Virus record (IMG/VR): IMGVR_UViG_3300031998_000058
Coordinates: 8,321-72,320 of that record
DNA length: 64,000 nucleotides
Source of the DNA: a virus
Taxonomy: Duplodnaviria > Caudoviricetes
Reading direction: 5' to 3' (one strand)
Numbering within the stretch: position 1 is the first letter of the stretch; every line of letters begins with the position of its first letter. Position numbers and translations under genes: made by a program. Shown here one piece after another: positions 12,231-37,528 of the stretch. Under the pieces are notes generated by a model, which saw only the letters and a program-made list of their open reading frames with translations, was not told where the DNA came from and ran no database searches.

Positions 12231-12310
12231 AAATAAAAAAGGGCCAACGCACCCTGGAACTAACCAAAGTGAGTTGACCCTTGTTGGTCGTTGCTGTGTC
12301 CTTGTTGACA
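12231..12310 (-). promoter_or_regulatory. Attenuator copy 1 (dual hexaloop plus overlapping terminator)
   Basis: Minus strand: TGTC-AACAAG-GACA, spacer CAGCAAC, GACC-AACAAG-GGTC, terminator GGGTCAAC...GTTGGCCC followed by TTTTTTATTTT. Confidence 0.85.
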
Positions 12311-12340
12311 GAGCCAAATATATAAACTATATCATATTGA

Positions 12341-12369
12341 ATTATAACATAACATAATGCAATTTGTAT
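12341..12369 (-). promoter_or_regulatory. Promoter P1: ATACAA-N17-TATAAT with extended -10 (TG)
   Basis: TGtTATAAT about 30 nt upstream of attenuator 1; same layout as P2. Confidence 0.6.
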
Positions 12370-12378
12370 AGTGTTTAT

Positions 12379-13668
12379 TTACATTGCTACGATTCTAGAA
12401 CGATATGTTCCCCAATTTGATGCATTCATAAAGGCATTATATAAACTAGATGGCACAAATATACTTCCACTTTGTCCTGCTACTGCTCTATAACCACCGA
12501 TAGGGGTGCTACTAAAAGCGTCGGTATTTTTCAATTCAGGAACCGCGGAAACTTCATTCAAATACAGAGACACCAAACGCCAGCAACTTTCAAACGCTCC
12601 CTTTCCGATGTATGCGCATTTTGGAAGGCTTAAAGTTGTGATTGAATGACAATTTGCAAAAGCCCACAGTTCAATAGTTGTGCACGCAGGAATACTAATG
12701 CTATTTAGATTTGTGCATCGTTCAAATGCACGGCTTCCTATAGACCCGCAAACCGAAAGGTTAATAGTTGTTAAAGAACTACAATATTGAAACGCCTGGT
12801 CTCCAGTAACAATGCAGTTCGGAATGCTGATATTCGTTAAAGTGCGGCAATATTGAAATGCTGCTGAATCAACCGCTGTGCATGCGGGAAGGTTTACGCT
12901 TGTTAGGGCGTAGCACTCTGCAAAAGCCATGTATCCAATAGTTGTGCAGGCAGGAAAGCTTGCCGATTCCAAAGAAGAACATAGTTCAAACGCAGCTTCT
13001 CCGATGTCTGTACACACTGGTAGGTTAATTGATGCCAAGGAATAACATGCGTAAAACGCTTCACTCCCCACATTTAAACACGATGGCAAAAACACTTCAC
13101 TTAATCCAGAGCATCCCAAAAATGCCCCTGATCCGACCATCGAACATACTGGAAAAGATATGGATGTAAGGTTTGTGCATGAACAGAAAGCTCTTTCCCC
13201 AATTTCTTGTACTCGTTCCATACTAATTGAAGTAAGACCGCTATTACGATAAACCGCATAATCTCTTACTTTCTTTAATGTATTTTCGGTCACGCTTCCA
13301 GATACCGAATATCCTCCCAGTAATACTTTCATTCCAGTACCACCTTCTGTCTGCCCGCTTGCTATTTTGAAGTCTGGATTAATATCATCCATCTCTGCTA
13401 TGGCTATATGATTATCCCCAGCGTTTCCGTTTCCCATTCGCAAAACCAGAACATTCGCGGATGATTCCACGTTGAATAGTTCCCTGGTGCATTGTATGGT
13501 TCTCTCACCGTCAAATGGAATCGTAACTGCAAGTGTTCCATCTCCATTATTCGTTGCTACCGTAGCACGATAGAAAGAAACATCATTTGAACATTCCTCT
13601 TCCAGTTTTGGCTTTATATAGTTTTTCCATAAGTTCTCAGCGAACTCGGTCATGTCTTGATTGTTCAT
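12379..13668 (-). CDS. BspA-type leucine-rich-repeat protein 1
   Basis: Start MNNQDM overlaps the upstream stop (ATGA). Shared N-terminal module, about 10 22-aa repeats (C..L..V.FP.C..IG..AF) and the conserved cap STPIGGY...SNW. Confidence 0.85.
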   Translation of the reverse strand: MNNQDMTEFAENLWKNYIKPKLEEECSNDVSFYRATVATNNGDGTLAVTIPFDGERTIQCTRELFNVESSANVLVLRMGNGNAGDNHIAIAEMDDINPDFKIASGQTEGGTGMKVLLGGYSVSGSVTENTLKKVRDYAVYRNSGLTSISMERVQEIGERAFCSCTNLTSISFPVCSMVGSGAFLGCSGLSEVFLPSCLNVGSEAFYACYSLASINLPVCTDIGEAAFELCSSLESASFPACTTIGYMAFAECYALTSVNLPACTAVDSAAFQYCRTLTNISIPNCIVTGDQAFQYCSSLTTINLSVCGSIGSRAFERCTNLNSISIPACTTIELWAFANCHSITTLSLPKCAYIGKGAFESCWRLVSLYLNEVSAVPELKNTDAFSSTPIGGYRAVAGQSGSIFVPSSLYNAFMNASNWGTYRSRIVAM

Positions 13669-15869
13669 ACAGGTACGATCCTTTCTGATATCGAAGCCCA
13701 ATTAGACGCAGCAACAAATGCACCGTATAAACTGGTCGGCACATATACTGATCCATATTGACCAGCAACATCGCTGTATCCCCCAATTGGTGTGGAGAAG
13801 AAAGCAGAGGTTCCAATTGATGTCACTTGCGATACTTTATCCAAGTATAGTGCAATCAAGTTGTAGCAACCGGAAAATATGCGCTGACCCAGATAAGTGC
13901 ATCTGGAAAGATACACCGTTGTCAGATTATGGCAAAGATAAAGCGCGTAAGCATCGGTCGATTGGCAGATTGGAAGGCTCACTGTTGTAAGATTATCGCA
14001 AACGCCAAGCGCCGCGTTCCCCAGAAATTCACATGCTGGAAAATACACCGATGTTAAACCTGTTCTGTTAAACGCCCCAGCTCTGATTGCAGAGCATACT
14101 GGAAAAGAAACCACGCTTATGTTTGAACAGTTCGCGAATGCATTATCGCCTAAATATTCACACGTTGGGAAATTAGCAGATTCCAAATTCATACATTCAT
14201 CAAACGCATAACTTCCGATATAAGAACACGTAGGAAAATTAATTGATTCTAGTCCTGCGCATCCACGAAATGCGCTGTTTCCAATATAAGAACATACTGG
14301 GGAAGATGCTTGTGTTATCGAGCATAGATAAAAAGCCTCCGCTCCAATATATTCACATGATGGAAAATGTGCATACGACAAGCTTGTACACCCAAAAAAT
14401 GCGCCCGCTTCAATGGATTTACATTTTGGAAAATAAGCGGACACCAATCTTGTGCAATCACGAAATGCACTGGTTCCAATATTCGAGCACAGTGGAAAAG
14501 ATGCCACAGTTATACCACAATACCGAAAAGCCTGATTCGATATCGTAGTACACGCTGGGAAGTCTGCGGATTCTAAACTCTGGCACTGGAAAAATGCACC
14601 TGCGCCTATATAAGAGCATTGAGGAAATGAAGCATATCTTAACGTATTACAATATGTGAATGCGGTTGCCCCAACATATGAGCACATAGGAAAATTGGCC
14701 GATACCAGATCAAAACAACTCCAAAACGCAGAACTTCCGATATAAGAACACACAGGAAAATCAGCTGACGCCAATTCGGTGCATTGATAAAACGCACCTA
14801 CTCCAATTGAAGAGCATCGTGGAAATGATATTGTATTTAAACCAAAACAAGACCGAAACGCATAAGCTCCAATTGTTTCACATAAAGGGAAATTGACGGA
14901 CGACAAACTCGTACACTGTGAAAAAGCACTACCGCCGATATAAGAGCACAGTGGAAATGAGACCTCCGTCAAGCTCGAACAATATCCGAATGCATACGAC
15001 CCAATATATTTGCACGAAGGAAAATGCGCAGATTCTAAGCCTGTGCAATTTGTAAATACCGTCTCACCAATATAAGAACACATTGGAAATAGAACATTGG
15101 TTAATCTAGAACAATACCAAAATGCATAGTTCCCAATATAAGTACATTGTGGGAAAGATACCGTTTCCAAATTCGAACACGATCCAAATGCTGTACTGCT
15201 AATATAAGTACACAACGGAAAGGAAGCCGTCGTCAGATTCGAACAAAATGCAAACGCGGTGTCTCCAATATGAGTGCACGACGGAAAAGAGACCGTCTCC
15301 AAACCAATACATGACGCGAATGCCGCCCCGCCAACATTAGTGCATACGGGGAATAAGGCTGCTGTCAAATTCGAACAGTATGCAAACGCAACACTACCGA
15401 TGTTGGTCACTTGTGGCATACTAATCGAGAGTAGACCAGAATTCGAATACGCTGCATAAGAACGAATGCTCAATAATGTGCTTTCAGAAACCAGTCCAGA
15501 TACCGAATATCCGCCAAGCAAAACTCTCAGTCCTATTTCTGTTTCAACAGGCTCTGCGGTTCCACCAAGCATCCATTCATCATCATCAGTAGCTTTGGCA
15601 ACGACCACATGGTTGTTTGCGACATTTCCATTTCCAAACCTACAGATTATAACCTGCTCTCCTTCGTTGACATCTTCAAGCGCCACTGTCCTGTTGATTG
15701 TTCTTTCTCCATCGAACGGTACTTTGACAGTCAAGGTTCCATCATCGTTCTTCGATACCACTGTAGCACGGTAATATGAAACGTCATTCGTGAACTCCTG
15801 CTCTATCTTCGGCTTTATGTAGTTGTTCCATAAGTTCTCAGCGAACTCGGTCATGTCATGATTGTTCAT
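13665..15869 (-). CDS. BspA-type leucine-rich-repeat protein 2 (longest)
   Basis: Start MNNHDM at an ATGA overlap; about 24 LRR units; same N-module and cap. Confidence 0.85.
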   Translation of the reverse strand: MNNHDMTEFAENLWNNYIKPKIEQEFTNDVSYYRATVVSKNDDGTLTVKVPFDGERTINRTVALEDVNEGEQVIICRFGNGNVANNHVVVAKATDDDEWMLGGTAEPVETEIGLRVLLGGYSVSGLVSESTLLSIRSYAAYSNSGLLSISMPQVTNIGSVAFAYCSNLTAALFPVCTNVGGAAFASCIGLETVSFPSCTHIGDTAFAFCSNLTTASFPLCTYISSTAFGSCSNLETVSFPQCTYIGNYAFWYCSRLTNVLFPMCSYIGETVFTNCTGLESAHFPSCKYIGSYAFGYCSSLTEVSFPLCSYIGGSAFSQCTSLSSVNFPLCETIGAYAFRSCFGLNTISFPRCSSIGVGAFYQCTELASADFPVCSYIGSSAFWSCFDLVSANFPMCSYVGATAFTYCNTLRYASFPQCSYIGAGAFFQCQSLESADFPACTTISNQAFRYCGITVASFPLCSNIGTSAFRDCTRLVSAYFPKCKSIEAGAFFGCTSLSYAHFPSCEYIGAEAFYLCSITQASSPVCSYIGNSAFRGCAGLESINFPTCSYIGSYAFDECMNLESANFPTCEYLGDNAFANCSNISVVSFPVCSAIRAGAFNRTGLTSVYFPACEFLGNAALGVCDNLTTVSLPICQSTDAYALYLCHNLTTVYLSRCTYLGQRIFSGCYNLIALYLDKVSQVTSIGTSAFFSTPIGGYSDVAGQYGSVYVPTSLYGAFVAASNWASISERIVPV

Positions 15870-16843
15870 ACAGGTACGATCCTCGATGATATATTTGACC
15901 AGTTGTTTGCACTGCAAAAATTACTGTATAGACTTGCGGGTACAAACACACTTCCGTATCTACCAGCCGATCCGCTATATCCTCCAATGGGAGTTGAATT
16001 AAAAGTGTCATATTGTAAAGTTGTTACTTGAGATACACTTTGCAAGTATAATGAAATCAAATTAGTGCATTTGTAAAACACACTATATCCGATGCTGCTA
16101 CATTTCTGAATTTCAGCTACAGATAAAAGTGTACAATTTTCAAATGCATGACTCTCAATACTTTCACAAACAGGCATGGATATCTCTTTCAATGATACAC
16201 AATTTGCGAAATCATAGTCGAACACATGCTTACACTTTGGCAAGTATACAGAGGCTAAATTCGAACAATTTTCAAACGTATGCCCTCCAAGCCCAGAACA
16301 TACTGGCAACGATACTTCACTAAGGTTTGTACAGAAACTAAACGCCCTACCAGCAACATTTTCACACGCAGGTAAGTGTACCGTAGTTAAAGCTCTACAG
16401 TTTATGAATGCATCGTGCCTTACAGTCTCGCATAAGGGAAAATATATTGACGCTAGGCTGATGCAGCTTTGAAAAGCACCGCTTCCCACATAGGTACAAG
16501 CTGGAAAGCTGATATTTTCCAGGGAACTACATCCATTAAAAGCATACATGCTAATACTTGTGCATGCAGGAAAACTAATTGTTTTCAGACTGCTACATTG
16601 AGTAAAAGCCATCTCTCCTACCTTCATGCACTTAGGAAATAGAGCTGTCGATATTCGATAACAACTTCGAAAAGCACTGCTCTCAATTTCTGTACACTTA
16701 GACAAGCTAACATATGTCAAATAACTCTTTCCGCTAAATGAACTGTACTCAACGCTTGGTGCAGTGCCAGTCAGCATAAATGTTGTATCTATTTCTATCG
16801 GTTCAGCTCCTCCGAGCGACCACGTTAATAGTTCTTCAGGCAT
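15866..16843 (-). CDS. BspA-type leucine-rich-repeat protein 3 (lacks the N-terminal module)
   Basis: Start MPEELL at 16843 with AAGGAG RBS; LRR units and cap only. Confidence 0.8.
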   Translation of the reverse strand: MPEELLTWSLGGAEPIEIDTTFMLTGTAPSVEYSSFSGKSYLTYVSLSKCTEIESSAFRSCYRISTALFPKCMKVGEMAFTQCSSLKTISFPACTSISMYAFNGCSSLENISFPACTYVGSGAFQSCISLASIYFPLCETVRHDAFINCRALTTVHLPACENVAGRAFSFCTNLSEVSLPVCSGLGGHTFENCSNLASVYLPKCKHVFDYDFANCVSLKEISMPVCESIESHAFENCTLLSVAEIQKCSSIGYSVFYKCTNLISLYLQSVSQVTTLQYDTFNSTPIGGYSGSAGRYGSVFVPASLYSNFCSANNWSNISSRIVPV

Positions 16844-16859
16844 GTTTTCTCCTTGTTGA

Positions 16860-18173
16860 TTACACAGGAACAATCCTTTCTGATATCGAAACCCAATTAG
16901 ACGCAGCAACAAATGCATTGTATAAACTTGCTGGTACAAATACGCTTCCATATCTCCTGGCTTCCACACTGTATCCACCGATAGGTGTGCTTGAAAATGT
17001 ATTATTACTAATAACAGGAACTGTAGATACTTCATTCAGGTACAGTGAGATCAATCGAAAGCATGCGCTAAATGGCAAGGTTCCAAAACCAGTACAGACC
17101 GGAAGGCTGACAGTTTCCAGTGATGCACAATATACAAATGTGCTACTACCAATCGAGGTACAAGCCGGAAGATTAACAGACCGTAAAGAACTACAGAAAC
17201 CAAAGGCCATGCTTCCAACATATGTACATGCCGGAAAACTAATTGTTTCCACAGCAGAGCATGCATAAAACGCATGGCTTGAAATAGTCTTACAGGTAGG
17301 CAGGCTGATGTTTTCCAGAGCTATACACCACCCGAACGCATCACTCCCAATAACTGAACAAACAGGAAGACTGACAGTTTTTAGCTTTGTACAAGCCTCA
17401 AATGCACTCATCCCAACAGATGTACAATTTGGAATATTGACAGTTTCCAAGGAACTACATTTAGAAAATGCTTCTGATTCCACACGCGTACAGACCGGAA
17501 GGCTAAGAGTTGAAATGTTAATGCACCCTAAAAACGCACGAGTTCCAACAAAGGAACACGAAGGAAGATTTATTTCCGTAAATGAAGAGCAATCCACAAA
17601 CGCATCATGGTCGATGTATGTACAGACTGGAAGACTTATTTCTGCAAGTGACAAGCACCATCTGAATGCGCTTGGCCCTACTGACAAACATGCACTAATG
17701 TTCACTTTTGACAGAGAGTAGCATTGTGCAAACGCACGGGTTCCGATATGAGTGCATTGCGGAAGGTCTACTTCTGTTAATGGGGTTGAATAAAACGCCA
17801 CGCTTGGAACACTGGATGCATTTCCCGTTAAAAGAAATGGTGTGTCTGCCTGTATAGGTCCTGGTCCTGGAACAGACCCATCACTATAGGTCATCATGGC
17901 AATATGGTTATCCGCAGCATTGCCGTTGCCATATCTCCAGACAATGACTTCTGAACCTTCTTCGATAGCATTCAGTTCCTTCGTGACTCTGATGGTCTTT
18001 TCACTGTCAAAAGGTGCTTTTACATTCAAAGTCCCGTTTCCATTATTAGCAATAACGACAGCACGGTAATAAGAAACCTTATCTTTGGCAAAAGTTTCCC
18101 TGTACTTTGGCTTGATGTAATTATTCCAAAGGTTTTCGGCAAGTTCTGCCATTGCTGCGCTGTCGTTATCCAT
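16860..18173 (-). CDS. BspA-type leucine-rich-repeat protein 4
   Basis: MDNDSAAMAELAENLWNNYIKPK N-module, LRR units and cap. Confidence 0.85.
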   Translation of the reverse strand: MDNDSAAMAELAENLWNNYIKPKYRETFAKDKVSYYRAVVIANNGNGTLNVKAPFDSEKTIRVTKELNAIEEGSEVIVWRYGNGNAADNHIAMMTYSDGSVPGPGPIQADTPFLLTGNASSVPSVAFYSTPLTEVDLPQCTHIGTRAFAQCYSLSKVNISACLSVGPSAFRWCLSLAEISLPVCTYIDHDAFVDCSSFTEINLPSCSFVGTRAFLGCINISTLSLPVCTRVESEAFSKCSSLETVNIPNCTSVGMSAFEACTKLKTVSLPVCSVIGSDAFGWCIALENISLPTCKTISSHAFYACSAVETISFPACTYVGSMAFGFCSSLRSVNLPACTSIGSSTFVYCASLETVSLPVCTGFGTLPFSACFRLISLYLNEVSTVPVISNNTFSSTPIGGYSVEARRYGSVFVPASLYNAFVAASNWVSISERIVPV

Positions 18174-18190
18174 AAATATTGTATTCCCTT

Positions 18191-18469
18191 TTAATGTGTT
18201 TTCTGCTCTGCCAGATGATGACCGGTTTTTTCAATAACGGTCAATCGTGTTTCATGATCCGCTATCTTATCATCGTGCTCATCTAACTGTTCCTGAAAGT
18301 CTTTATGCTCTGCCGCATTTTCCATTTCCATTTTTTTGATCTGTTCACTAACAGTGCTCAAGATTACCGTCAGTTCGGTCATGGCCCTGGTGTTCTTGAT
18401 CAATGGTGTTGAGACAGCAATAACAAAACCTACGATGGCTATTAGCACTGTAACTATGGTCCATTCCAT
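18191..18469 (-). CDS. Holin-like small membrane protein (N-terminal TM helix plus coiled coil)
   Basis: MEWTIVTVLIAIVGFVIAVSTP... followed by a coiled coil ending HETRLTVIE, an XhlA/haemolysin-like layout. Confidence 0.55.
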   Translation of the reverse strand: MEWTIVTVLIAIVGFVIAVSTPLIKNTRAMTELTVILSTVSEQIKKMEMENAAEHKDFQEQLDEHDDKIADHETRLTVIEKTGHHLAEQKTH

Positions 18470-18622
18470 TGCGTTTTTCCTCCCTTCTTTTGCAAATCAA
18501 CTCAGTCAATCGGCATCTGTCGGGATGCGCCGTCATGTTCTGGTTTGTTTACGGGTTCCTCAGTTCTACAAGCTCGTGTAAGATTATCCCCCATGTCGCA
18601 ATACACCATTGCCATCTTCTTC

Positions 18623-19642
18623 CTACACTCCTTTAATTTCTTCGACGTGTTTCAGCCACGCGTCTATTGTTATCGTCTCCATCGGCATTCCTTCCGCTAC
18701 TGCCCTGTTTCGGATTCCGTTGGAGATAGACATCTTCTCCTGTTCGGTCAACTTCTCCCACCGATGTTTATGTTTCGCAAAGTAATCTGCGAACCGGTTC
18801 TCTACTGCATCACGATAGTCCTGGTTATTAATGTCAATCCATTCCTTCTTGTTCATGGTATAGTAAGCATCAAATATCATGAACGCCGCATAGAAGTTTG
18901 CTTTGTCATCGTGACCTCTCCTGCTGAATTCATCAACCAGGGCATCATTGGAATCCAGCATATTATTATAGGTCTTTAAGATATAATCCTTGTCGTGCCT
19001 GCAAACGCTTTCCTCTCTCCACTTCCAGAGATAGAACGGTGTCTGGCAATACTTGGCTTCCTTCGTTAAGTTCTGTGCAAGGATGTTGAAGTAACTGTCC
19101 TCATGGATCGTCAATTTCGGGTTGAACCTGATATTCTTGTCCAGAAGGTATGAGCGCCTGTGGAACTTACCGTGAACAAATGTCGAATCCATATCGTGAT
19201 TCATATAGACTATCTGCTTCCTGTCCGGCGTTCTGGTCTCTTCGATGAAACAACTTGTGATTGTATCAAATCCACCGTCCTTGTTCATTTCATTGAAGAT
19301 AATATACAGACCGCATACGTGGCAGTACATATCGTCTATATCACACCAGGTTATGTACTCTGCTTTAGCGGCATCCAGGCAAGAGTTTCTTGCTGCCGAT
19401 ACTCCCGCATGTTCCTGCCTAATCTGCTTGACTTCGAACGGATACTTCCTTGCTATAACGTATTCCCCTGTAGCATCAAGGTCTGTCGTGAACTCAAAGT
19501 CATGGGATTCTTCCCCGTCATGACAAATGATTACACCGATTTCGTTGAAATCCACGGACTGCTGAACAGCTATGGAATCAAGTAACGGGATAATAACTTC
19601 TGCCGGTTCCTTGTAGTGCGGAACTAAAATCTGCAATTTCAT
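18623..19642 (-). CDS. Glycosyltransferase family 2 (GT-A fold)
   Basis: ILVPHYKE...LLDSI; GVSAARN..LD.A...YI.WCDIDD (DxD motif); EDSYF. Confidence 0.85.
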   Translation of the reverse strand: MKLQILVPHYKEPAEVIIPLLDSIAVQQSVDFNEIGVIICHDGEESHDFEFTTDLDATGEYVIARKYPFEVKQIRQEHAGVSAARNSCLDAAKAEYITWCDIDDMYCHVCGLYIIFNEMNKDGGFDTITSCFIEETRTPDRKQIVYMNHDMDSTFVHGKFHRRSYLLDKNIRFNPKLTIHEDSYFNILAQNLTKEAKYCQTPFYLWKWREESVCRHDKDYILKTYNNMLDSNDALVDEFSRRGHDDKANFYAAFMIFDAYYTMNKKEWIDINNQDYRDAVENRFADYFAKHKHRWEKLTEQEKMSISNGIRNRAVAEGMPMETITIDAWLKHVEEIKGV

Positions 19643-19672
19643 ACTTTCTTTTCCCCCTGTGAATTAAATTGC

Positions 19673-19752
19673 AAATAAAAAAGGGACAACACATCTCGCA
19701 TTTCTACGAAATGTATTGACCCTTGTTGGTCGTTACCATGCCCTCGTCGGCA
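19673..19752 (-). promoter_or_regulatory. Attenuator copy 2
   Basis: TGCC-GACGAG-GGCA, spacer TGGTAAC, GACC-AACAAG-GGTC, terminator GGGTCAATACAT...ATGTGTTGTCCC followed by TTTTTTATTT. Confidence 0.85.
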
Positions 19753-19781
19753 TAGCCTGTATACACTTTTTATTATTATAT

Positions 19782-19810
19782 ATTATAGCATACTGGTCTT
19801 ACAGTTGTAC
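19782..19810 (-). promoter_or_regulatory. Promoter P2: GTACAA-N17-TATAAT with extended -10
   Basis: TGcTATAAT about 30 nt upstream of attenuator 2. Confidence 0.6.
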
Positions 19811-19865
19811 ATAACAATATGGTTTGGACATTATCAAGCGTAATGACAACGTGAGCGTGTTGACG

Positions 19866-20214
19866 TTATCTGTCGCCCACAATTGCCACATCTGAACACG
19901 GCATGATAAATCTATACATTCGTGTGCTACCCGGATACACAGAGGAGCCGGTAGTACTTGGAACGGTCTGGTTGCCAATATAAGCTTTATCAGATACCAA
20001 AGGTGGTGAAGACAAGTATCCCGAAGTATAAACAATCACGTAATCCCCGACCTGAACATTAATCGGTAAATCACTTGCCGTATATTCTTCTGTAGTGTTA
20101 TCAGGGTTAGTGACTATTATTGTTGTTATTAAGGCGAGTGCCTCAGAATTAGCACTCAACTCAAAGCTACTCGTACCCCCCCCCTAAAATTGTGGTTGAA
20201 GCATTAAAAATCAT
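19866..20214 (-). pseudogene. Small beta-domain (InlB-B-repeat-like) gene, frameshifted at a G9 tract
   Basis: RBS AGGAGG and ATG at 20214 read MIFNASTTILGGGYE*. With G8 at 20176-20184 the leader joins the 19866-20159 frame, which ends ...YRFIMPCSDVAI. Confidence 0.7.
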
Positions 20215-20283
20215 ATTGTTCCTCCTAACTGATTACTTAAAAATATTATCGTTGTTATAATGTATTGGCGTTAACATTATTAA

Positions 20284-20676
20284 TTATTCTGAGCTTTCAC
20301 GCTGTAAAATAAGTAAAACATCTGTAAGTCCCTGTTCAAAGGATATATCTATTGAAGAACCGTAAAAAACTGACTGTATGACTGAAAAAGTTACTTGATA
20401 CTCTTGTTCGTCGAAATCATCACCTTCCATTCTTAGAGGCACACTATACGTATCCTCCGCGTAGCTTGTTGCGATACCTACATCGTTATAAAGTTCACCA
20501 TTCAGGTATCCAATTCCATAAACCCACATAGGTTTATCTGTTAAAATCGTAACGCCCGGCAATTCCACAAATTTACCAGAATAATCCTCTGATGTGAAAT
20601 GTAAGACAACTAAATTAGGGCTGTCTATACCCCCCCCTTTTTTTTGAGTCACAGTTGTAGTCATATTGAATATCAT
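20284..20676 (-). CDS. Small hypothetical fibre/decoration-cluster protein with an in-frame A8-G8 tract
   Basis: MIFNMTTTVTQKKGGG...; A8G8 at 20630-20645. Confidence 0.7.
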   Translation of the reverse strand: MIFNMTTTVTQKKGGGIDSPNLVVLHFTSEDYSGKFVELPGVTILTDKPMWVYGIGYLNGELYNDVGIATSYAEDTYSVPLRMEGDDFDEQEYQVTFSVIQSVFYGSSIDISFEQGLTDVLLILQRESSE

Positions 20677-20689
20677 ATATGCCTCCTTA

Positions 20690-20977: not shown

Positions 20978-21038
20978 AGTTACCTCCTAAGAACCTGCCA
21001 CGGTGTTACCCGTAGCAGGAAATAATCGTTTTGTGTTG

Positions 21039-29009: not shown

Positions 29010-29025
29010 TCCAACTCCTTCCCGA

Positions 29026-29763
29026 TTACTCGATCAGATCCTGTTTGTTCATCCCCTCAAGAATCGCCTTGAACCCAGGCTGCGGAGCAATCTTATTCAT
29101 TTTCACGACGACATCCCTTGATACCTTTCTTTTGGTTTCGGGATTCATCCATGATTCGTAATAAACTTTGGCAACAACCTTTTTGCTGGCGTCACACAGA
29201 TCGGTATATATGTTTACAATGTCATCTGAGCATTCGAGCATGCGTGTGAAGACCTGTTTATCAAGGACTTCACCGGGTTTATAATTGACTCCGTACATCT
29301 CCCGTTCTTCATCTGTGAATCCGCCAAGAACGATCAACCATCTGTCTTTAATGAAGTCTCTCGTCATGGAATCAAGGATCCTCGACAGGTCGTTCTTCGG
29401 AACGCTGAAGTTTCCAACCTTTCCGGTGATTTTTCCATACTCGCCTCGTTCTCCAATGAGAAGCTCGTTCTCGTCTGCGACCGGTGCCAGCCATAAAAAG
29501 TCAACTCTTTCCCTGTCCTGGCTCACAAAGATAGTCTGCGGAACTGTATTCACCTGTGTTTTGAGCTGATTCATCTGCTCCTGAAGCATGTTGTTCTGCT
29601 CTTGTGACATCTCGAACTGTTTCTGCAGCATCTCGTTCTGTTTCTTCAGTTCTTCCAATAGCGCATTCTGTTTCTGCTCATCGGTTGTTGTAACCTCAGT
29701 TTTCGCCGGTTCCGCTTTTGCGGTCTGGTTAACTTCATTCTTCTTTGTTGATCTGGTTGCCAT
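29026..29763 (-). CDS. Hypothetical head-module protein with coiled-coil N-terminus
   Basis: Start MATRST with AAAGGAG RBS, immediately after the capsid gene. Confidence 0.55.
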   Translation of the reverse strand: MATRSTKKNEVNQTAKAEPAKTEVTTTDEQKQNALLEELKKQNEMLQKQFEMSQEQNNMLQEQMNQLKTQVNTVPQTIFVSQDRERVDFLWLAPVADENELLIGERGEYGKITGKVGNFSVPKNDLSRILDSMTRDFIKDRWLIVLGGFTDEEREMYGVNYKPGEVLDKQVFTRMLECSDDIVNIYTDLCDASKKVVAKVYYESWMNPETKRKVSRDVVVKMNKIAPQPGFKAILEGMNKQDLIE

Positions 29764-29882
29764 AAGTGATATCTCCTTTCTATCCTCTTTTCTCGATATC
29801 ATTATTCAAACGGCTGTGGGGAGGGCTTGCACCTCCCCTGCGAAATATCTCCAGCCCTATTTCAGGAGGTCTATGAATACGA

Positions 29883-31106
29883 TTAGATCGATGTCTGGCC
29901 TACCTTATCTGCGAATACAGCAGCAATCTCAAGCGCGACTGTCATGTTCGCACCGATCATGCCGTCACCGTTACGCATCGGGTCGAACTCGATGGTGATC
30001 GGAGTGACTGTGTTCATCGCAATCTTGAACGGCTTCCTTGCGTTGGAAGCGAGGATCCAGATTTTGTTTGTCGGAAGCAGTGTGGTTACTGCATCGTTCT
30101 GCGTTCCGGGAACCACTGCGTCTACGAGGGGCATCAGTTTGACGCCCATATATTTTCCGAGATATCCGCTGTTCACATACTCCTGGCCGAGAAGAGTAGC
30201 GATAGCAGCATCCATATCAGCATTCGTGGTGCCAGTAGCTTCCTTCGGAAGGACCTTTGACAGAGCTACAAGTCCGCCCCATGCAACAAGGTTTCCGATA
30301 CCGGTCTGGTTAACAGCGCTCAGCTTGTTCGCCAGGGTTACCCAGTTAACAGAGCTGAACGTAGTCGTAAGACCACTGGGAATAAGGGTCGCATCTGCTG
30401 AAGCAGTTGTCAGAGCCGCAACGAACATGCCCATCGTCTTCGCGTAAAGTCCAGCAGTAAGATTCGCGAAGAAACGTCCGAAGTCCATATCGTTAGAGAT
30501 CAGCTGCGTCCATTTGAATTTGAGCGCTGCGCTTCTCGGTTTCGGGTTCATGGTGATGTCCTGTGCGTACAGGGTGTTATCCGGCACGTTCCTGATTGCG
30601 CCCCAGGAAGAATCCTGAAATACTACAATGTCATTTGATGTGACGGTAACAGAAGCAGTCTCACCAAATCCTACCGGAATGACATCAGCAAACGGAGCAA
30701 CCGCTTCGGAATAAACTCTCGGCATGATGGGGCTTTCAATCTCTTCATAGAGGCTCTGGAGCACTTTGAAGAAATCTCTGTTTGTGTAGAACTTCATGCT
30801 CTGGCGCTTGAAGTCTTCATAGGTTTCAGGAGCAGCAGCTCCAACCTGATTGCAGGCTACCTTGGCTGCATAAAGCAGATGTTTCGCCTGGAACTTCTCG
30901 TTGTAGTCTCTGTAGTCTCCGTCAGAGATCATGGAGACACCCGATGTATCCGCGGTATGCAGAGCGTTGCACATAAGTTTTGCACCCTTACGGGAATGCT
31001 CTGTCATGAGGATACGTCCCATTGTGACCAGCTCGTCACGCTCCGGATCCTGGCTGTTGACAAGAAACAGTTTGCTTGAAATGTTGTTAAAAGCTAATTT
31101 TGTCAT
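29883..31106 (-). CDS. Major capsid protein
   Basis: 407 aa, after protease and decoration genes; strong RBS; downstream hairpin near 29818-29841. Confidence 0.7.
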   Translation of the reverse strand: MTKLAFNNISSKLFLVNSQDPERDELVTMGRILMTEHSRKGAKLMCNALHTADTSGVSMISDGDYRDYNEKFQAKHLLYAAKVACNQVGAAAPETYEDFKRQSMKFYTNRDFFKVLQSLYEEIESPIMPRVYSEAVAPFADVIPVGFGETASVTVTSNDIVVFQDSSWGAIRNVPDNTLYAQDITMNPKPRSAALKFKWTQLISNDMDFGRFFANLTAGLYAKTMGMFVAALTTASADATLIPSGLTTTFSSVNWVTLANKLSAVNQTGIGNLVAWGGLVALSKVLPKEATGTTNADMDAAIATLLGQEYVNSGYLGKYMGVKLMPLVDAVVPGTQNDAVTTLLPTNKIWILASNARKPFKIAMNTVTPITIEFDPMRNGDGMIGANMTVALEIAAVFADKVGQTSI

Positions 31107-31124
31107 TGTTCACACACTCCTTTC

Positions 31125-31706
31125 TCAGCTGCCCACAGACACTTTGCATGCCTTGACATCAATGTATGCGAAGGACTTGCGTGAGCCTTTGGTGAAGTAT
31201 CCGCTGCCGACCTTCTCGAAGTAGATCGAACCTGCAGCTGTCGGTGCGCTGGCTTCCTTCTTCAGGAAACCGCCGTCGATGCTGAAGTATGTGCCGGTCG
31301 CGTCGTCCGCGTTGCCTGCGCCAAAGCGATAAACATTGATGTTGTCGAATCTAACCAGAGTGAAGGTATCGGTATCGCCGGCGTTGATGCCAAGACCAAG
31401 GGTCTCATGGCCGATGTGATACCTGTTGTTTCCACCCTGGAGCATCTGCGACTCATAGGGGTTGCACGCATAGATCGGGGTGTCGATGTTCGCATCGGAA
31501 GTAGCGGCATTCATGATGTATGCGTTTTCGTTGTAAATTCCGGCAAAGCCTTCGCAGGGAAGCAGGCCGTTCGTCACACAAAGTGTTCCGGCACTGCAGT
31601 CAGCAGGATCATCACTGACCTTGTACAGACCTGTCACGTTGCAAAGCTTGTCCCATTCATTGTTTGAAACTCTCGCTTCAAAAGCGGTATTTGCTGTAAA
31701 TGACAT
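31125..31706 (-). CDS. Head decoration/cement-like protein
   Basis: 193 aa between scaffold/protease and capsid; assigned by position. Confidence 0.45.
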   Translation of the reverse strand: MSFTANTAFEARVSNNEWDKLCNVTGLYKVSDDPADCSAGTLCVTNGLLPCEGFAGIYNENAYIMNAATSDANIDTPIYACNPYESQMLQGGNNRYHIGHETLGLGINAGDTDTFTLVRFDNINVYRFGAGNADDATGTYFSIDGGFLKKEASAPTAAGSIYFEKVGSGYFTKGSRKSFAYIDVKACKVSVGS

Positions 31707-31724
31707 ATCTCATTACTCCTTTAC

Positions 31725-33170
31725 TCAAATTTTTTCAGCTTTCCATTTGGCCAGCAGTGATGCTACGTCATTCGCCTTGGCCGGATCTTCCTTGGCCATA
31801 TCCCACAGATACTGGGACTGCGCTTTAGCAGCGTTTCTGGCAACGGCAGCCTTGTCGAACTCCATGACTGCAGCGGCGCATTTCGCTAATACTGCATTGC
31901 AGACAGCTTCTTCTCCGCACCAGTCGCCTTCACCATTGATACACTCGGTATAAGCGCCGGCATCAACCGCGGCGTTGATATCGTCAAGAATCGCTTCGTT
32001 GACTTTCTCTTCGCGGTTCGCGTTGAATTTAGCAAGTGCTTCTTTTGCTGCCGCTTTAGCTGCTTTCAGCCTGCGTCTCTTTTCCGCAGCCTCCATTGAT
32101 TCAAGGCTTTCTTCTGCTGTGGTCAGCTTTTCCTTTGTAGCAGTAAGTTCGGTGTTTGCTTTTACGAGGTTCGCGCTCAGCATGGCGGTGAGCACGTCAG
32201 ACTCAATATCAATGTGCTCTTCGCCAAACGCGAACTGCACATATAAATCGACATCCGTGATCTTCTTCGGATCAATCATCGCGTCCATGCTGTCCATCGT
32301 ATAAGTAGCAGTCGATCCATCAGCAGCCATCAGACAAACATGGATGCCTGCGTCGTTCCGGCCTGCTGCAAGAACGGTGTACCCCTCGAACTTAGGTGCT
32401 AAATCGGCAACCTGTTTCTTCGTGAATACCTGCATCGTTGATTCTCCTTTACGATTTAATTGTGTTTGCGGCTTTTTGGTTTCTGTGCCTTCATCCGGTT
32501 CTTTGTTCTCTCCCGGATCGACAGTGACGTTATCATCGTCTTCATCGTCATCGTCTTCGGCATTTATTAATGAAGCGGCCCGGAGCTTCAGCTCCTGGAA
32601 CTCACTTTCAATCTCTTGTAACGCTTTGATATTTGCGCCTGGGATCGCAGGTGCTACACCCGATCCGAGAATAGTGACGCCGATTATGTTATAGTTGGTA
32701 AACACCTCTACATTCGGATCGTCTTGATCTATATGACCCTCTATAACCTCCGTCTCTACCGAAACTTCCATAACACCTTGTCGCTTGATATACTCCACTA
32801 ATTCATGAGCGTAAAAATCAAACAAACGACCTTCTGCGACCAACCAGGTCTCACCATCTTCTTCTATAAGTTTCAAATCCTTTGGGTCGTCACTAATGGT
32901 TCCCACCACTTGTTCCAATCCAGGCTTGCTTATGAAGCTGTAGTATTTTTCTCCGTTGGCATCTATGCGCTCCTCCATAAGGTGGCCGTCACCAATGCGT
33001 CCGCCCGGAAAAGCGCATAATATTGGGCATCCAAGGGCAGACATGTAATGCTCGTCTAAGTTCTGGTAATTCCATTTATTCCTGTTAAGTCCAGAGCGCA
33101 TCATTCTCAGCGAAACTCCAAACTCATACTTGTTTAGTTTTTGTGTGATTCTTAACTCCGCTATTGCCAT
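31725..33170 (-). CDS. Prohead protease/scaffold protein
   Basis: N-domain with GH..., MEVSVETEV and GVTILG..V.PAI..A motifs; acidic linker and helical C-terminus. Probable start MAIAELR (the ORF-track start lies in the terminator). Confidence 0.65.
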   Translation of the reverse strand: MAIAELRITQKLNKYEFGVSLRMMRSGLNRNKWNYQNLDEHYMSALGCPILCAFPGGRIGDGHLMEERIDANGEKYYSFISKPGLEQVVGTISDDPKDLKLIEEDGETWLVAEGRLFDFYAHELVEYIKRQGVMEVSVETEVIEGHIDQDDPNVEVFTNYNIIGVTILGSGVAPAIPGANIKALQEIESEFQELKLRAASLINAEDDDDEDDDNVTVDPGENKEPDEGTETKKPQTQLNRKGESTMQVFTKKQVADLAPKFEGYTVLAAGRNDAGIHVCLMAADGSTATYTMDSMDAMIDPKKITDVDLYVQFAFGEEHIDIESDVLTAMLSANLVKANTELTATKEKLTTAEESLESMEAAEKRRRLKAAKAAAKEALAKFNANREEKVNEAILDDINAAVDAGAYTECINGEGDWCGEEAVCNAVLAKCAAAVMEFDKAAVARNAAKAQSQYLWDMAKEDPAKANDVASLLAKWKAEKI

Positions 33171-33219
33171 ATGACTTGTGCCTTTCTGAATCTGTTCTCC
33201 TATCACTGGATAATTTTTC

Positions 33220-33292
33220 AAAAACAAAAGGACTCAGAAACACACCCTGTGTTTCTAAGCCCTTGTTGGCTATTCTGCCCATCTCGTTATGA
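33220..33292 (-). promoter_or_regulatory. Attenuator copy 3
   Basis: TCAT-AACGAG-ATGG, spacer GCAGAAT, AGCC-AACAAG-GGCT, terminator GGGCTTAGAAACAC...GTGTTTCTGAGTCC followed by TTTTGTTTTT. Confidence 0.85.
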
Positions 33293-33303
33293 ACAGTAAT
33301 TAT

Positions 33304-33483
33304 TTAGTTTCTCTGTTTACCTCTTCCGCACGGCGGCGTTTCGAATTCTTTTTTTCTCGCTATCCTCACGTTCTCCTCGAATATCAGTGTGCGATACGAA
33401 GTCCGTGTAATTCTGACGTCAGCGTGCTTGGCCAATATTTGGTTGATGACCGGCAAATCTTCTGCGCCTATGTATTCTCGCAT
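33304..33483 (-). CDS. Small 59-aa protein (not in the ORF track) ending 11 nt before attenuator 3
   Basis: GAGGGG RBS 7 nt before ATG; MREYIGAEDLPVINQILAKHADVRITRTSYRTLIFEENVRIARKKEFETPPCGRGKQRN*. Confidence 0.55.
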   Translation of the reverse strand: MREYIGAEDLPVINQILAKHADVRITRTSYRTLIFEENVRIARKKEFETPPCGRGKQRN

Positions 33484-33494
33484 TCATTGTCCCC

Positions 33495-35294
33495 TCAACC
33501 ACCATAACTATCCTGATCTTTTTCCTGGCCTTCACTGGTAATCCCTTCGCTCTGCGGTCTCCCACCCTCATCTCTTGTGGGGTCTGCATTCGGATCCGTG
33601 ATTTTTCCGTGTGGCGGCAATCCAGATCCTTCCGGTGATCCGCTGAACGATGTCACAAGCGGCAGTCTCTTATCCAGTATTCCGCTTTCGTATATCGCAT
33701 CGCTCCAGGCAATATCTTCAATGATGCTTCTGTCGTTCAGTGCATTCAGCATCATGTTAGCCGGCAGGATGCCGAGCGTCATTTCTTTTCTCGCCTCTTC
33801 CCTGAGACGTTCATCTGATTCCAGGTCACCAAACATGTAAAATCTAAAGTCGTATTTAAGATTCAGGTTATCGATGACGCTGTTCATCATCCGTTCCATG
33901 CAACGATAAATTGTTTTGGAGAACTGCGACTCTATCTTCAGTGATATCTGTGCCAGACCAGACCTTGCATCTGATGTAGTGGGGATAATTCCTCCCAGTC
34001 CGGCTTTATTCATCGTGTCCTGGTATCCCTGAGATACAATGTTCGTAGCGCCTGGAGCTTCCGGAAGAGTCTCCATCCGCATGTTCTTAAATGGTGCTGA
34101 GTATATTCCTATGCCACTGGTATTGTTCATGTTTAAGGTGTTGTACCACAAAGCCTCAAACATCATTCGTCCAGCATTACTAAGCTTGTACTGATCCTCT
34201 GTATATGAATCCTTGTTCTCATAATACGGTATCTCACCGGTCAAAATGGCTATCAATGGATTCTGGAGGAGCTCAAGCTGAAGGCTTTCCAGCTGCGACA
34301 GCTGAAGCATATCAAGAAGCAGGCCCGTGAAAGGTGTTGCAACATCACGCGATACATCGTCTATCTCAAACGTAAAGACCTTATCTACCGGCAGCGTTAC
34401 CCAATAGAACCATCTTCCATTCTGGCAATATACATCTGCATCCGGCTTACGCTCTGCAAGCTTTACTATGTTGATAGAATTTCCGCCCGCATAGACTATT
34501 TTGCTTCCTACGCCACGCGGTATTTCTTCCAGACTCATATCATAATCTTCAAGATACGGCAGGAACAAATCGCCAAACTGTCTGGGATCCGTCCCGTATT
34601 GCGAAAAGTACATCATGTCAAAAGCCACAGTGTACTTGGATATATTGTTGTATCCTACTATCTTCGTCCAATCACTCGGAAGCTGCTGCAGGAATGCGTG
34701 ATTAACCTTGTTATGAGCTTTATCAACACTGTATCTCGGCGTGTAAAAAACCTTTCCCTCTTGTAGCGACTGTCCGGCTATCTGGTGTGTATAAGACTTG
34801 ATATCAAATGTTGTGCGAAGCTTCTCTAACAGTTTCCACTCACGCCAGAAGTCGGGTTTTGCTGCATCTTCTTTCTCTGTGAGATACGGAGCTACATAGC
34901 TGTGATAGGTTAAAAGATTCTGATATACGACTCTCGTATGGAAGAATGGATACGACGGGCTTTCGAGCCAGTGTACGGCCTGTCTGATTTCTTTCTCGTT
35001 GGAATCAACATCGTCCAACATTGACTCCACTTGGCTTTTCTTGAACTTCCGCGCCATCGATGATATGTGTTTGGCGCGACGATTCTGTGCATATGGATCC
35101 CGATTCCCAAGTGCTCCAGTTCCGGCCGCGATTCCAAAGGCCGCGACAAGCCGATCATACGGCATATCACCATATTGTTTGGACAGTTCTTGAACTCGCC
35201 TGGTTATTTCAGGAAAGCTCGCATACTTCAAACTGTTAAGTTCGGTCTCTACGTTAACCCTGTCCATCCTTTGCCTTTTCTTCCCGTAATGCAT
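33495..35294 (-). CDS. Portal protein
   Basis: About 590 aa directly after TerL; acidic/Pro-rich tail; layout reminiscent of SPbeta-type head modules. Confidence 0.7.
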   Translation of the reverse strand: MHYGKKRQRMDRVNVETELNSLKYASFPEITRRVQELSKQYGDMPYDRLVAAFGIAAGTGALGNRDPYAQNRRAKHISSMARKFKKSQVESMLDDVDSNEKEIRQAVHWLESPSYPFFHTRVVYQNLLTYHSYVAPYLTEKEDAAKPDFWREWKLLEKLRTTFDIKSYTHQIAGQSLQEGKVFYTPRYSVDKAHNKVNHAFLQQLPSDWTKIVGYNNISKYTVAFDMMYFSQYGTDPRQFGDLFLPYLEDYDMSLEEIPRGVGSKIVYAGGNSINIVKLAERKPDADVYCQNGRWFYWVTLPVDKVFTFEIDDVSRDVATPFTGLLLDMLQLSQLESLQLELLQNPLIAILTGEIPYYENKDSYTEDQYKLSNAGRMMFEALWYNTLNMNNTSGIGIYSAPFKNMRMETLPEAPGATNIVSQGYQDTMNKAGLGGIIPTTSDARSGLAQISLKIESQFSKTIYRCMERMMNSVIDNLNLKYDFRFYMFGDLESDERLREEARKEMTLGILPANMMLNALNDRSIIEDIAWSDAIYESGILDKRLPLVTSFSGSPEGSGLPPHGKITDPNADPTRDEGGRPQSEGITSEGQEKDQDSYGG

Positions 35295-35598
35295 TCTCCA
35301 GACGGTCCACCATCAACACCATATCATTCGATATTTGTTCACGGTGCTTTGCTGTCTCTTCAGCAATAATCACCGTATTGCAGTCTAAGAGCCAACGCAC
35401 ATCATCATCTGTCAAATAGCTAAGTTCACTTTCGCTTATTGTATTGTAGCATTTATTATATTTCTTTTTGTATCCCTTTACGTAAAATAAGATATATGTA
35501 GGGGTAATCCGATAAAATCTTTCGTCCTGAACCACCTCTATGTTCTCCATTGTGGTTTCAAGCGCGTACAATCGATACCTCACTTTTCTCTTACTCAT
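35254..35598 (-). CDS. Hypothetical protein between TerL and portal
   Basis: 114-aa ORF overlapping both neighbours. Confidence 0.55.
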   Translation of the reverse strand: MSKRKVRYRLYALETTMENIEVVQDERFYRITPTYILFYVKGYKKKYNKCYNTISESELSYLTDDDVRWLLDCNTVIIAEETAKHREQISNDMVLMVDRLENALREEKAKDGQG

Positions 35599-37429
35599 AA
35601 TGTCGCCCTCCCATTCTGCGAGTTATCATGCGTCCACTGCCGCCTCCTGCCGGCATGACTATTCCTCCATTCTGATATTTCTCAAGCTCCTTTGCCCAAT
35701 CACTTGTGCTTTTTTGTTTTACTAAATACAGACGTTCCAGTTTCTGTGCAAAACGCAGAGCATACTTCAGGGCCGACCAGCTATCTCTCTGGATTGAAGG
35801 TGTGATCCTTCGTTCGCTTATTCCGTTCCCAGACGGTACTTGTTTCAGGTTCTGGATCTGACTGACGAGCTCCTTTGTTTTTTTGAACGGCTTTGCTATG
35901 GCCACATCCGCATAATCATCTTTAATCCGGTGATATTGTTTATATGTTTTAACGCCTTCTGCTTCATCCGATGTCAGTAACTGTACATTGTGGTTCGCAA
36001 ATTGAGTCTGTGCATTACGGACCATTTCACTGTCAGGATCCGTTGCTCCTGCTCCACCTGCTTTGATCGGGTAGATGATCGGAATTGCGCCTTCCAGTTC
36101 GTAAGGTACGTATTGATCATGGTCATAAATACACAAAGGATTCAGACCGTCTCCCAGGTCTTGCATCAAGCTTTCTATGACCGCTTTTCCGTAAGCCCAT
36201 CCGTCTACAACAATATATGTTTCTGATCCTTCGTAACAAAACCGATACCATATCTCTTTCAGCTTCCTTGCCTGAAGCATCGCATCCATTGGCGCCCAAT
36301 CATCCAGCCACACAAGCTGTTTCAAATACTTGTCTCTCTTAAACCAGTCTTTCTGCTTTGTACATTTCACCACTCCACAAGCGCATTTTGCATTCATGAT
36401 CGAGTCTTCATACGAAACGTCATAAGCAACAATGTAAATGACGTCTTTCGGCTTTATCTTATTATCACGGTCTTTGCAACAATGGTGTTCTTCCATCAGG
36501 AGCAGGTTGCGGCTTTCTGCCAGGTCTTCTTCCCGAATGATGGGATTCTCCGAGGATCCTGTGTATCGACTGCACATCTCACGCATCCATTCGCTTGCTG
36601 TGGAATCCGCTTTACGCTGCATAGCCCATTCATAAGACCTCATTTGGGACAGTACGATTACTTCCCATGGTATGTCCATGACAAATGCTTTTTCGTTTGG
36701 ATTATGCGCAATCATCAGTTTTAAATGATTCCTGCGTGAAAGATATGCTGGATTCAACTTGCTTGTGGCCGAAGTGATGGAGTGCTGTTGAAACTTAATA
36801 AAGTTCGGATCCTCTTTCTTTCCTACTCTGTACTTGTTTCGAACAGCATACAAAACAACGGTTGAATACTCTTTATGGTCAAACGCAGGGTTTTCTTCCT
36901 GGGCATACTCTTCTGCAGTAACGTCATGGATATTTTTCCCTCGAACGGCATTGATTGTAATACGTGAGTTATATTGCGTATATATCTCCCAGTTATCGTT
37001 AGCTTCATGTTTTATCTTGTAATGGCTGGCGATTACCGGGTAATCTCGTGTAAGATCAGCGAATGCCGTAGCAGCAAGTTCTGCCTGCTGTTTGTACGAC
37101 GGGCCATAATAAGACGATTTAATCCCAAGCCACATCAAATTATGCGCAGATTTTTGAAAGATTTTGCATGTGGTCTTCGTGGCAGAACGACACCCTGTAA
37201 TATCAACGTATTGATTTCTTTCAAACGCACGGATCATGACCCTTTGTATCAGTTCCCACTGGTACTGCGCTTCGTCACTTCTAAAGATGTCTCCCATTAC
37301 GTCCGGATACCATCGGAAAAAGCTGATAAGAAAGAACCACGCATCTGTAATATAGTCATCATATTCTCGTTCCTGTACGTCTTTCTTGGCCTTTCCTCTT
37401 GTAGCACGCCATACTTTCTTTAAAGCCAT
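35591..37429 (-). CDS. Terminase large subunit
   Basis: Walker A-like GCRSATKT, Walker B-like TAEEY, nuclease motifs AYDVS, VVDGW.YG and RDSWSA. Confidence 0.8.
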   Translation of the reverse strand: MALKKVWRATRGKAKKDVQEREYDDYITDAWFFLISFFRWYPDVMGDIFRSDEAQYQWELIQRVMIRAFERNQYVDITGCRSATKTTCKIFQKSAHNLMWLGIKSSYYGPSYKQQAELAATAFADLTRDYPVIASHYKIKHEANDNWEIYTQYNSRITINAVRGKNIHDVTAEEYAQEENPAFDHKEYSTVVLYAVRNKYRVGKKEDPNFIKFQQHSITSATSKLNPAYLSRRNHLKLMIAHNPNEKAFVMDIPWEVIVLSQMRSYEWAMQRKADSTASEWMREMCSRYTGSSENPIIREEDLAESRNLLLMEEHHCCKDRDNKIKPKDVIYIVAYDVSYEDSIMNAKCACGVVKCTKQKDWFKRDKYLKQLVWLDDWAPMDAMLQARKLKEIWYRFCYEGSETYIVVDGWAYGKAVIESLMQDLGDGLNPLCIYDHDQYVPYELEGAIPIIYPIKAGGAGATDPDSEMVRNAQTQFANHNVQLLTSDEAEGVKTYKQYHRIKDDYADVAIAKPFKKTKELVSQIQNLKQVPSGNGISERRITPSIQRDSWSALKYALRFAQKLERLYLVKQKSTSDWAKELEKYQNGGIVMPAGGGSGRMITRRMGGRHYE

Positions 37430-37454
37430 TCTTGTTTCCTCCGAGTCTACTTAC

Positions 37455-37528
37455 ACAAAAAGACTAACACGCTTTGGCATTTCAAAGCGTATTAGCCCTT
37501 GTTGGCTGTTCCCGCACCCGCGTTGGTA
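37455..37528 (-). promoter_or_regulatory. Attenuator copy 4
   Basis: TACC-AACGCG-GGTG, spacer CGGGAAC, AGCC-AACAAG-GGCT, terminator GGCTAATACGCTTTG...CAAAGCGTGTTAGTC followed by TTTTT. Confidence 0.85.

Follow-up and report, generated by a model that had tools for sequence, protein, structure and literature searches.

What controls the late genes of phages of gut Clostridia, and which factor reads the signals placed in front of those genes? Late-gene control in such phages is, to our knowledge, essentially unknown. The question is raised by a stretch of 64,000 nt (the window) from a virus of the Caudoviricetes, bases 8321-72320 of the 72,320-bp IMG/VR record IMGVR_UViG_3300031998_000058 (estimated to be 93% complete), in which an RNA element of about 80 nt occurs four times on the minus strand in the late region. 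An earlier note, made from the letters of the window, had read these elements as attenuators gating the late modules and as part of a candidate phage-specific antitermination system. Below, G000 denotes this phage, labels such as G004-G016 denote related viral or metagenome-assembled genome (MAG) records, and L087-L103 denote contigs or loci with members of a small protein family. The RNA part is interpreted with high confidence as a conditional terminator of the hairpin-competition type. Judged from sequence, the regulation is probably of a known kind, an ANTAR-like RNA switch, with a new protein family as its reader.

Structure and position of the RNA elements

The four elements share one layout: a hexaloop hairpin (P1, with loop L1), a 3-nt linker (AAC or AAU), a second hairpin (P2, with loop L2), and a strong terminator with a U-tract.

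37453-37533, minus strand: site 4, P1 loop AACGCG, AAC linker, P2 stem AGCC/GGCU with loop AACAAG, terminator and U-tract
33219-33297, minus strand: site 3, P1 loop AACGAG, AAU linker, P2 loop AACAAG, terminator
19673-19757, minus strand: site 2, P1 loop GACGAG, AAC linker, P2 stem GACC/GGUC with loop AACAAG, terminator
12231-12315, minus strand: site 1, P1 loop AACAAG with one stem mismatch, AAC linker, P2 loop AACAAG, terminator

All four were thus present where the earlier note had placed them, with the loops it had given (four variants of L1, AACAAG as L2 in every copy). Two of its details had to be revised: the stem of P1 has 8 bp (with one mismatch in site 1) instead of four, and with P1 counted in this way the supposed 7-nt spacer becomes the 3-nt linker. 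The 4-bp stem of P2 is as described. The 10-mer CCAACAAGGG, which comprises the closing pairs and loop of P2, occurs four times, all at these sites (0.08 occurrences expected from shuffles). Covariance-model searches of the entire 72-kb record yielded no copies beyond these four.

The 85-nt stretch at each site folds into P1 and the long terminator hairpin, followed by the U-tract, at -33 to -40 kcal/mol (z = -5.1 to -7.5 across the four sites). The alternative fold, P1 plus P2, is the minimum free energy structure of the first 44 nt (-13 to -18.5 kcal/mol), P2 alone contributing about -5 kcal/mol. A GGYY arm is common to P2, as its 3' arm, and to the terminator stem, as its 5' arm, so that the two folds are mutually exclusive in all four copies, as had been claimed. 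The covariation of the stems, likewise claimed, was borne out by the four-copy alignment: 97.9% of the cells are paired and nine of the 12 pairs show compensatory changes, whereas none of 500 shuffles was as good and slid registers paired in 29-46% of the cells.

The genes around sites 3 and 4, which come directly after their upstream genes, are as follows (ORF, open reading frame).

35591-37429, minus strand: large terminase (TerL) gene, the first gene past site 4, with a weak match to phrog_2 and clear homologs
33495-35294, minus strand: portal gene (phrog_2739, E 1.6e-33), directly upstream of the 59-aa ORF
33304-33483, minus strand: 59-aa ORF, candidate antiterminator gene, its Shine-Dalgarno sequence GAGGGG overlapping the portal stop codon and its own stop codon lying 7 nt before P1 of site 3

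Site 4 lies 20 nt past the stop codon of a 285-aa gene, with TerL directly downstream. Site 3, which occupies a syntenically conserved place ('position A') downstream of the portal gene and the 59-aa ORF and upstream of the head genes, lies about 50 nt ahead of the ATG (33169) of the first head-module gene. Site 2 is found upstream of a GT2 gene and of BspA-type LRR_5 genes, and site 1 upstream of a Cys-rich 59-aa ORF and a block ending in a 2088-aa protein. The earlier assignment of modules stood for TerL after site 4 and GT2/LRR after site 2, whereas its labels 'protease-capsid' and 'tail' found no family match. About 25 nt upstream of P1 of sites 2 and 1, promoter-like sites were called by a consensus scan only.

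19782-19811, minus strand: promoter-like site with extended -10 (TG-TATAAT), ahead of site 2
12341-12370, minus strand: promoter-like site with extended -10 (TG-TATAAT), ahead of site 1

The region between sites 2 and 1 (12379-19642, minus strand) is an accessory cassette with its own promoter-like site and its own attenuator; it encodes a GT2 glycosyltransferase (339 aa), three BspA-type LRR_5 proteins (437, 734 and 429 aa) and an ORF of 325-389 aa. The Cys-rich 59-aa ORF right after site 1 (12028-12207, minus strand) is kept in nine relatives including G012, had no Pfam or PHROG match, and possibly encodes a zinc-binding small protein of the tail-proximal block.

Occurrence of the element in relatives

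Relatives were chosen by TerL homology (49-72% identity) and comprised nine viral records and seven MAG loci. By covariance model and structural scan the element was found in nine of the 11 related viral and MAG records examined for it, and additionally in one further prophage and one conjugative element, with four copies in G000 and one to three per relative. The structural scan, which looked for two similar hexaloop hairpins and an overlapping terminator, recovered copies in G007, G008, G009, G010, G013 (contig C164) and G014. The covariance model R3 was seeded with 10 copies from six records; in its alignment 98.3% of the cells pair and 11 of the 12 pairs are compensatory, a result reached by none of 500 shuffles (slid registers, 33-44%). 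R3 located copies on which it had not been trained in G004, G005, G006, G008, G009 and G010 and on two more phage contigs of MAG G016. The copies of G007, misplaced by MAFFT owing to their 2-nt linker, were kept out of the seed; R3 recovers one of them (G007_b) weakly, at 17 bits. Models R1 (P1 and terminator) and R2 (the four G000 copies) were too narrow, retrieving at most one copy in relatives. When IMG/VR was scanned for exact matches to the loop and linker pattern of G000, three were obtained; all lie inside coding sequence and were attributed to chance. The R3 search found no element in G011 and G012, where the portal gene abuts the next gene without a spacer.

Regarding position, the element lies at the boundary between portal and head genes, corresponding to site 3, in nine records; in or ahead of the tail block in five, flanked by the homologs of the 237-aa and 277-aa genes; ahead of the gene for the largest protein in two; and ahead of the 285-aa gene and TerL in G014. 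The proposal that conditional terminators gate the late modules gains support from this conservation at late-module boundaries together with the covariation, and the covariance-model search that the earlier note had recommended thus returned the element at syntenic places. No known Rfam family was matched: at the gathering threshold the whole window gave a single tRNA, and at E ≤ 10 the four loci gave nothing. The term 'phage-specific' holds for the loop sequence, which is specific to each genome, but not for the system, which is a family present in many phages and at least one conjugative element.

Among 151 sampled genomes of the order of G013, the RNA was found in G013 only, and the small protein described below convincingly in G013 only, at two loci; protein matches in G025 and G116 were discounted, being within large ORFs or containing stop codons. 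The second locus in G013 is an unrelated prophage on contig C20 (L103, G013:C20:35500-43261), with the order element, GNAT gene, TerL-like gene, portal-like gene, a divergent 49-aa member of the protein family and another copy of the element, AAAAAG being the loop sequence in both copies.

Directly behind the attenuator U-tract, several relatives have a conserved block, about 70-100 nt long, that resembles int-alpA RNA. One such block (L102:3276-3342, plus strand) matched Rfam RF02996 (int-alpA RNA) at 41.2 bits (gathering threshold 35.8), and similar blocks occur in L087, L090 and L092; G000 lacks it. Its location, with the terminator on one side and the first head gene on the other, may be telling.

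Loops differ from genome to genome. The set is AACAAG in G000, AAAGAG or GAAGAG in G004, G008-G010 and G013, AAACGG in G005 and G006, and GAGUGG in G007 and G014; AAAAAG (C20 prophage), AAGUAG and an AUUGG pentaloop were also seen. As L2, the sequences AACAAG, AAAGAG, GAGUGG, AAACGG, AAAAAG and AUUGG occur. Copies within a genome have the same L2 or nearly the same (in G009 one AAGGAG accompanies AAAGAG), whereas their stems diverge completely. Such a pattern, fixed within and different between genomes, calls for a genome-specific reader.

A small protein family as candidate reader

To find candidates for the reader, all G000 ORFs were screened with profiles for presence or absence among the ORFs of 12 related records. 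The family of the 59-aa ORF (33304-33483) was present in all 10 element-bearing records and was not detected in the element-less G011 and G012, even at E ≤ 10. In G014 the family gene abuts the element although the pair precedes TerL instead of following the portal gene. On these data no other ORF family fits both in distribution and in position, which favors the suggestion of the earlier note that a regulator-RNA pair distinct from ANTAR may be at work. Two other candidates were rejected: an HTH_39 winged-helix protein (54578-54805), whose distribution had at first seemed to match but of which G011 has a syntenic homolog in spite of lacking the element, and the 285-aa protein encoded upstream of TerL, which is present in all relatives including the element-less ones.

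A profile search of 1.84 billion representative proteins gave 147 matches, about 118 of which are proteins of 43-90 aa. Members are typically about 55 aa long (45-90 aa), with nine nearly invariant positions over 44 sequences and a mean column identity of 32%. No Pfam or PHROG match was found for the family (five members Pfam-scanned at E ≤ 10). The AlphaFold model of the 59-aa protein (predicted local distance difference test score 79) has a helix, a beta-hairpin and a basic tail; comparisons with known structures gave nothing above noise (best E 1.3 with Foldseek against PDB, best Z 3.1 in a wide VIA-align search). Sequence-profile matches in PDB were to de novo TIM-barrel designs only and were judged spurious. 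A complex prediction with two copies of the small protein scored 0.20.

Independent contigs were then picked by protein homology alone for ten diverse family members. The element directly follows the family gene in L087, L090/91, L092/93, L097, L101 and L102. In the conjugative element with a type IV secretion system (L100, 3001-3396), the family gene lies after a TraG/VirD4-like coupling-protein gene and before PrgI-/VirB4-like genes, and two tandem elements, with loops AAAUGG/AAACGG and AAACGG/AAGCGG, begin inside its 3' end. In L088, L094, L095 and L096 the stop codon of the small gene is at the very end of the contig, which is consistent with assembly breaks at a repeated element. For P0018, the member closest to the G000 protein (60% identity), the gene is followed by AACAAG/GACAAG loops.

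Comparison with known systems

ANTAR target RNAs consist of two hexaloop hairpins with A1 and G4 in both loops, the second hairpin overlapping a terminator; examples are the eut leaders of Enterococcus faecalis (EutV), nasF (NasR) and amiE (AmiR) (PMC3369931, PMC8934654). The phage elements resemble them in having two small hairpins with loops of about six nucleotides, a short linker and a P2 whose 3' arm is the 5' arm of the terminator, and in the expected mode of action, with termination as default, one element per terminator (non-processive) and several copies per gene cluster. The architecture named by the earlier note therefore stands in the dual hairpin overlapping a terminator, but the loop rule does not: L2 has A at position 4 in all four copies, L1 of site 1 is AACAAG as well, L1 of site 2 starts with G, and relatives add GAGUGG and AUUGG, all in a genome-specific manner. 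Further differences are the associated protein, here one of about 55 aa with a predicted alpha/beta fold instead of the three-helix ANTAR domain, and the setting, here phage late genes and a conjugation operon instead of metabolism. The earlier note saw no ANTAR ORF in the phage, and none was detected in the searches made: PF03861 gave no match in six frames of G000, G007-G010 and G012 at E ≤ 10 (the prefilter gave no candidates, its sensitivity there being untested), and no ANTAR domain appeared in Pfam scans of about 50 G000 ORFs (E cut-offs 0.1-1) or of five family members (E ≤ 10).

The N/boxB pair differs between the related phages lambda, P22 and phi21. The present system would be like it in joining a small basic phage protein to a hairpin that varies between phages, and in controlling the progression of lytic transcription. 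Unlike N and Q, which modify RNA polymerase and whose processive action extends from one site over many terminators, it is predicted to work by local structural competition, each terminator having its own competing hairpin; instead of a single site with boxA and a boxB pentaloop, every copy has a dual hexaloop fused to its own terminator. In systems of the BglG/LicT type, the ribonucleic antiterminator (RAT) is one imperfect hairpin, about 29 nt long, to which a CAT domain binds. It shares with the proposed system a protein that stabilises an antiterminator overlapping a terminator; no CAT domain turned up in Pfam scans of about 50 G000 ORFs.

The nearest mobile-element system of a protein gene and an adjacent RNA is conAn, a bipartite antitermination system of conjugative plasmids in Gram-positive bacteria. 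ConAn1 has 172 codons, the functional part being the N-terminal ~100 codons (construct 1-103), and the conAn2 RNA, of 260-600 nt, occurs once at the operon start and confers processive antitermination on unrelated terminators (PMC8191782). Common to both are a small-protein gene immediately followed by its RNA partner, a location on Firmicutes mobile elements and low sequence conservation between systems. The present system is set apart by size and layout: the RNA of about 80 nt carries its own terminator and is repeated, and the protein has 45-90 aa, as opposed to a ConAn1 of about 100-170 aa and a 260-600-nt RNA at the operon start.

Proposed mechanism

By default each element would be an intrinsic terminator in the off state. 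P1 and the weak P2 would form first in the nascent RNA; unless P2 is held closed, the much more stable terminator stem would capture its 3' arm and transcription would stop. Termination is taken as the default, with P2 in need of stabilisation from outside, because P2 is so much weaker than the terminator fold. The holder would be the phage's own basic 59-residue protein, encoded between the portal gene and site 3, which would recognise the genome-specific loops of P1 and P2 (of the ACAAG type in G000) and stabilise the dual-hairpin fold, so that RNA polymerase reads through into the next late module. The action would be non-processive, every module boundary requiring its own copy, which would account for the four copies in G000 and one to three per relative. 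Most relatives have a TerS-like gene, then TerL and portal, the small gene with the element behind it, and finally the head genes. This arrangement suggests a delay or threshold device, in which the packaging genes and the factor are made first and the structural modules open as the factor accumulates; in G000 the additional copies would provide separate gates for TerL, for the GT2/LRR accessory cassette and for the last block. We infer that termination and read-through occur at the elements and that the small protein binds the RNA, the stoichiometry of binding being part of the same inference. To this reading, a small protein and its RNA acting by non-processive, ANTAR-like antitermination with the 59-aa protein as holder, we assign a probability of roughly 0.55.

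Several observations weigh against it. The 59-aa protein has no recognisable RNA-binding fold. L089 is an exception, with a family member and no element in the 400 nt of DNA available, and in G007-G010 and on contig C164 of G013 a gene or tRNA intervenes between the family gene and the element. As gene and element are physically linked, common descent would by itself produce part of their co-occurrence and of the correlation of loop and protein; only a few events are independent (the relocation in G014, the conjugative element, the C20 prophage and the absence of both from G011 and G012). In G000, moreover, the candidate gene lies downstream of site 4, and its first expression would need leaky read-through or an internal promoter.

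Alternative explanations

The attenuators may be regulated while another phage or host factor reads them, the 59-aa protein being a morphogenesis or packaging accessory that shares the portal-proximal position. Its lack of an RNA-binding signature and its location, in nearly all phages, in the neighborhood of TerL, portal and head genes would agree with this; the pair is, however, kept outside that context, in the conjugative element and in the different arrangement of G014, and no second ORF family has the same presence/absence pattern, the HTH_39 candidate having failed. We consider such a reader unlikely. Rather unlikely, too, is that the elements are true ANTAR targets read by a host REC-ANTAR protein (NitR-like), which would tie late transcription to the nitrogen status of the host and leave the small ORF unrelated. 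The architecture of dual hairpins, short linker and P2 overlapping the terminator is shared with ANTAR targets (PMC3369931, PMC8934654), many loops conform to A1/G4 (AACGAG, AAAGAG, AAAGGG), and a single REC-ANTAR gene directly follows glnA in two of the five host MAGs of relatives (G013 and G014). Yet the invariant L2 AACAAG lacks the G4 whose mutation impaired EutV-dependent induction, and relatives have GAGUGG and AAGUAG loops and AUUGG pentaloops. In G013, a single host, two prophages have different loops (AAAGAG and AAAAAG), each with its own variant of the small protein; because loops differ even between two prophages of one host, a reader encoded by the element-bearing phage is favored over a host ANTAR protein. 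G016 has two elements and no ANTAR protein was found in it (the MAG is incomplete), R3 gave no convincing chromosomal targets in the five host MAGs, and the upstream regions examined at the glnA-ANTAR loci of G013 and G014 contain no dual-hairpin leader.

Least probable of all is that the elements are constitutive terminators between operons, the upstream hairpins serving RNA stability or processing, or an attenuation coupled to translation of the upstream ORF, and no trans factor being dedicated to them. Terminators are common between phage modules, and the elements at site 3 and in G014 begin 0-7 nt past the stop codon of the small ORF, so close that the 5' arm of P1 would be covered by a ribosome terminating there. 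Sites 1, 2 and 4, however, do not have this ORF ahead of them, and the nine nearly invariant positions of the protein family are unlike a leader peptide. Nor would a constitutive terminator explain that the 5' arm of P2, which lies outside the terminator, covaries with the shared arm (three of the four P2 pairs compensatory, 100% pairing), or that loops are conserved within a genome while stems drift.

If the 59-aa protein is the reader, as we favor, it would represent a new antiterminator family, the ANTAR RNA design would have been reused convergently by a different protein, and the naturally orthogonal protein/loop pairs would provide compact transcriptional switches for Firmicutes. The more general claim is put forward tentatively, at slightly less than even odds: that the family of about 55 residues is a new class of sequence-specific RNA-binding antiterminators, co-evolved with the elements into many orthogonal protein-loop specificities and timing the expression of late or transfer genes across phages of gut Clostridia and conjugative elements, as a counterpart of lambda N/boxB that is non-processive and converges on the ANTAR RNA architecture. 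What is described is a concrete two-part module, an 80-nt RNA and a 59-aa protein. Many uncultivated phages have it, as does at least one conjugative element, and it appears to act as a separate gate for each of the head, tail and accessory (GT2/LRR) modules. The element could help annotation pipelines to mark late-operon boundaries in metagenomic phage genomes.

Other features of the phage genome

G000 probably infects a bacterium of the gut Clostridia, because relatives of its TerL were found in MAGs labelled Acutalibacteraceae, Clostridia and Eubacteriales. Shine-Dalgarno sequences are strong in G000. The presence of an integrase and an S24/helix-turn-helix (HTH) repressor indicates a temperate phage; both genes face a Cro-like gene.

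57544-58554, plus strand: integrase
56933-57547, plus strand: S24/HTH repressor
56531-56737, minus strand: Cro-like gene

The early region, on the minus strand next to the lysogeny genes, encodes YqaJ, DUF1351, RusA, RecT, SSB and DnaC-like proteins according to Pfam scans and is followed by the late region on the same strand. Two tRNA calls, tRNA-Met (CAT) at 62030-62102 and a 99-nt tRNA-Tyr-like sequence (GTA) at 63490-63588, both on the minus strand, were made; only the former reached the Rfam gathering score. Three genes on the minus strand resemble those of nucleotide metabolism or DNA modification (38888-39538, 39542-40333 and 48443-49540); the proteins at these loci are a dATP/dGTP diphosphohydrolase N-domain fused to two HTH motifs, a thymidylate-synthase-like protein and a PAPS-reductase-like protein. 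These genes hint at modified DNA bases.

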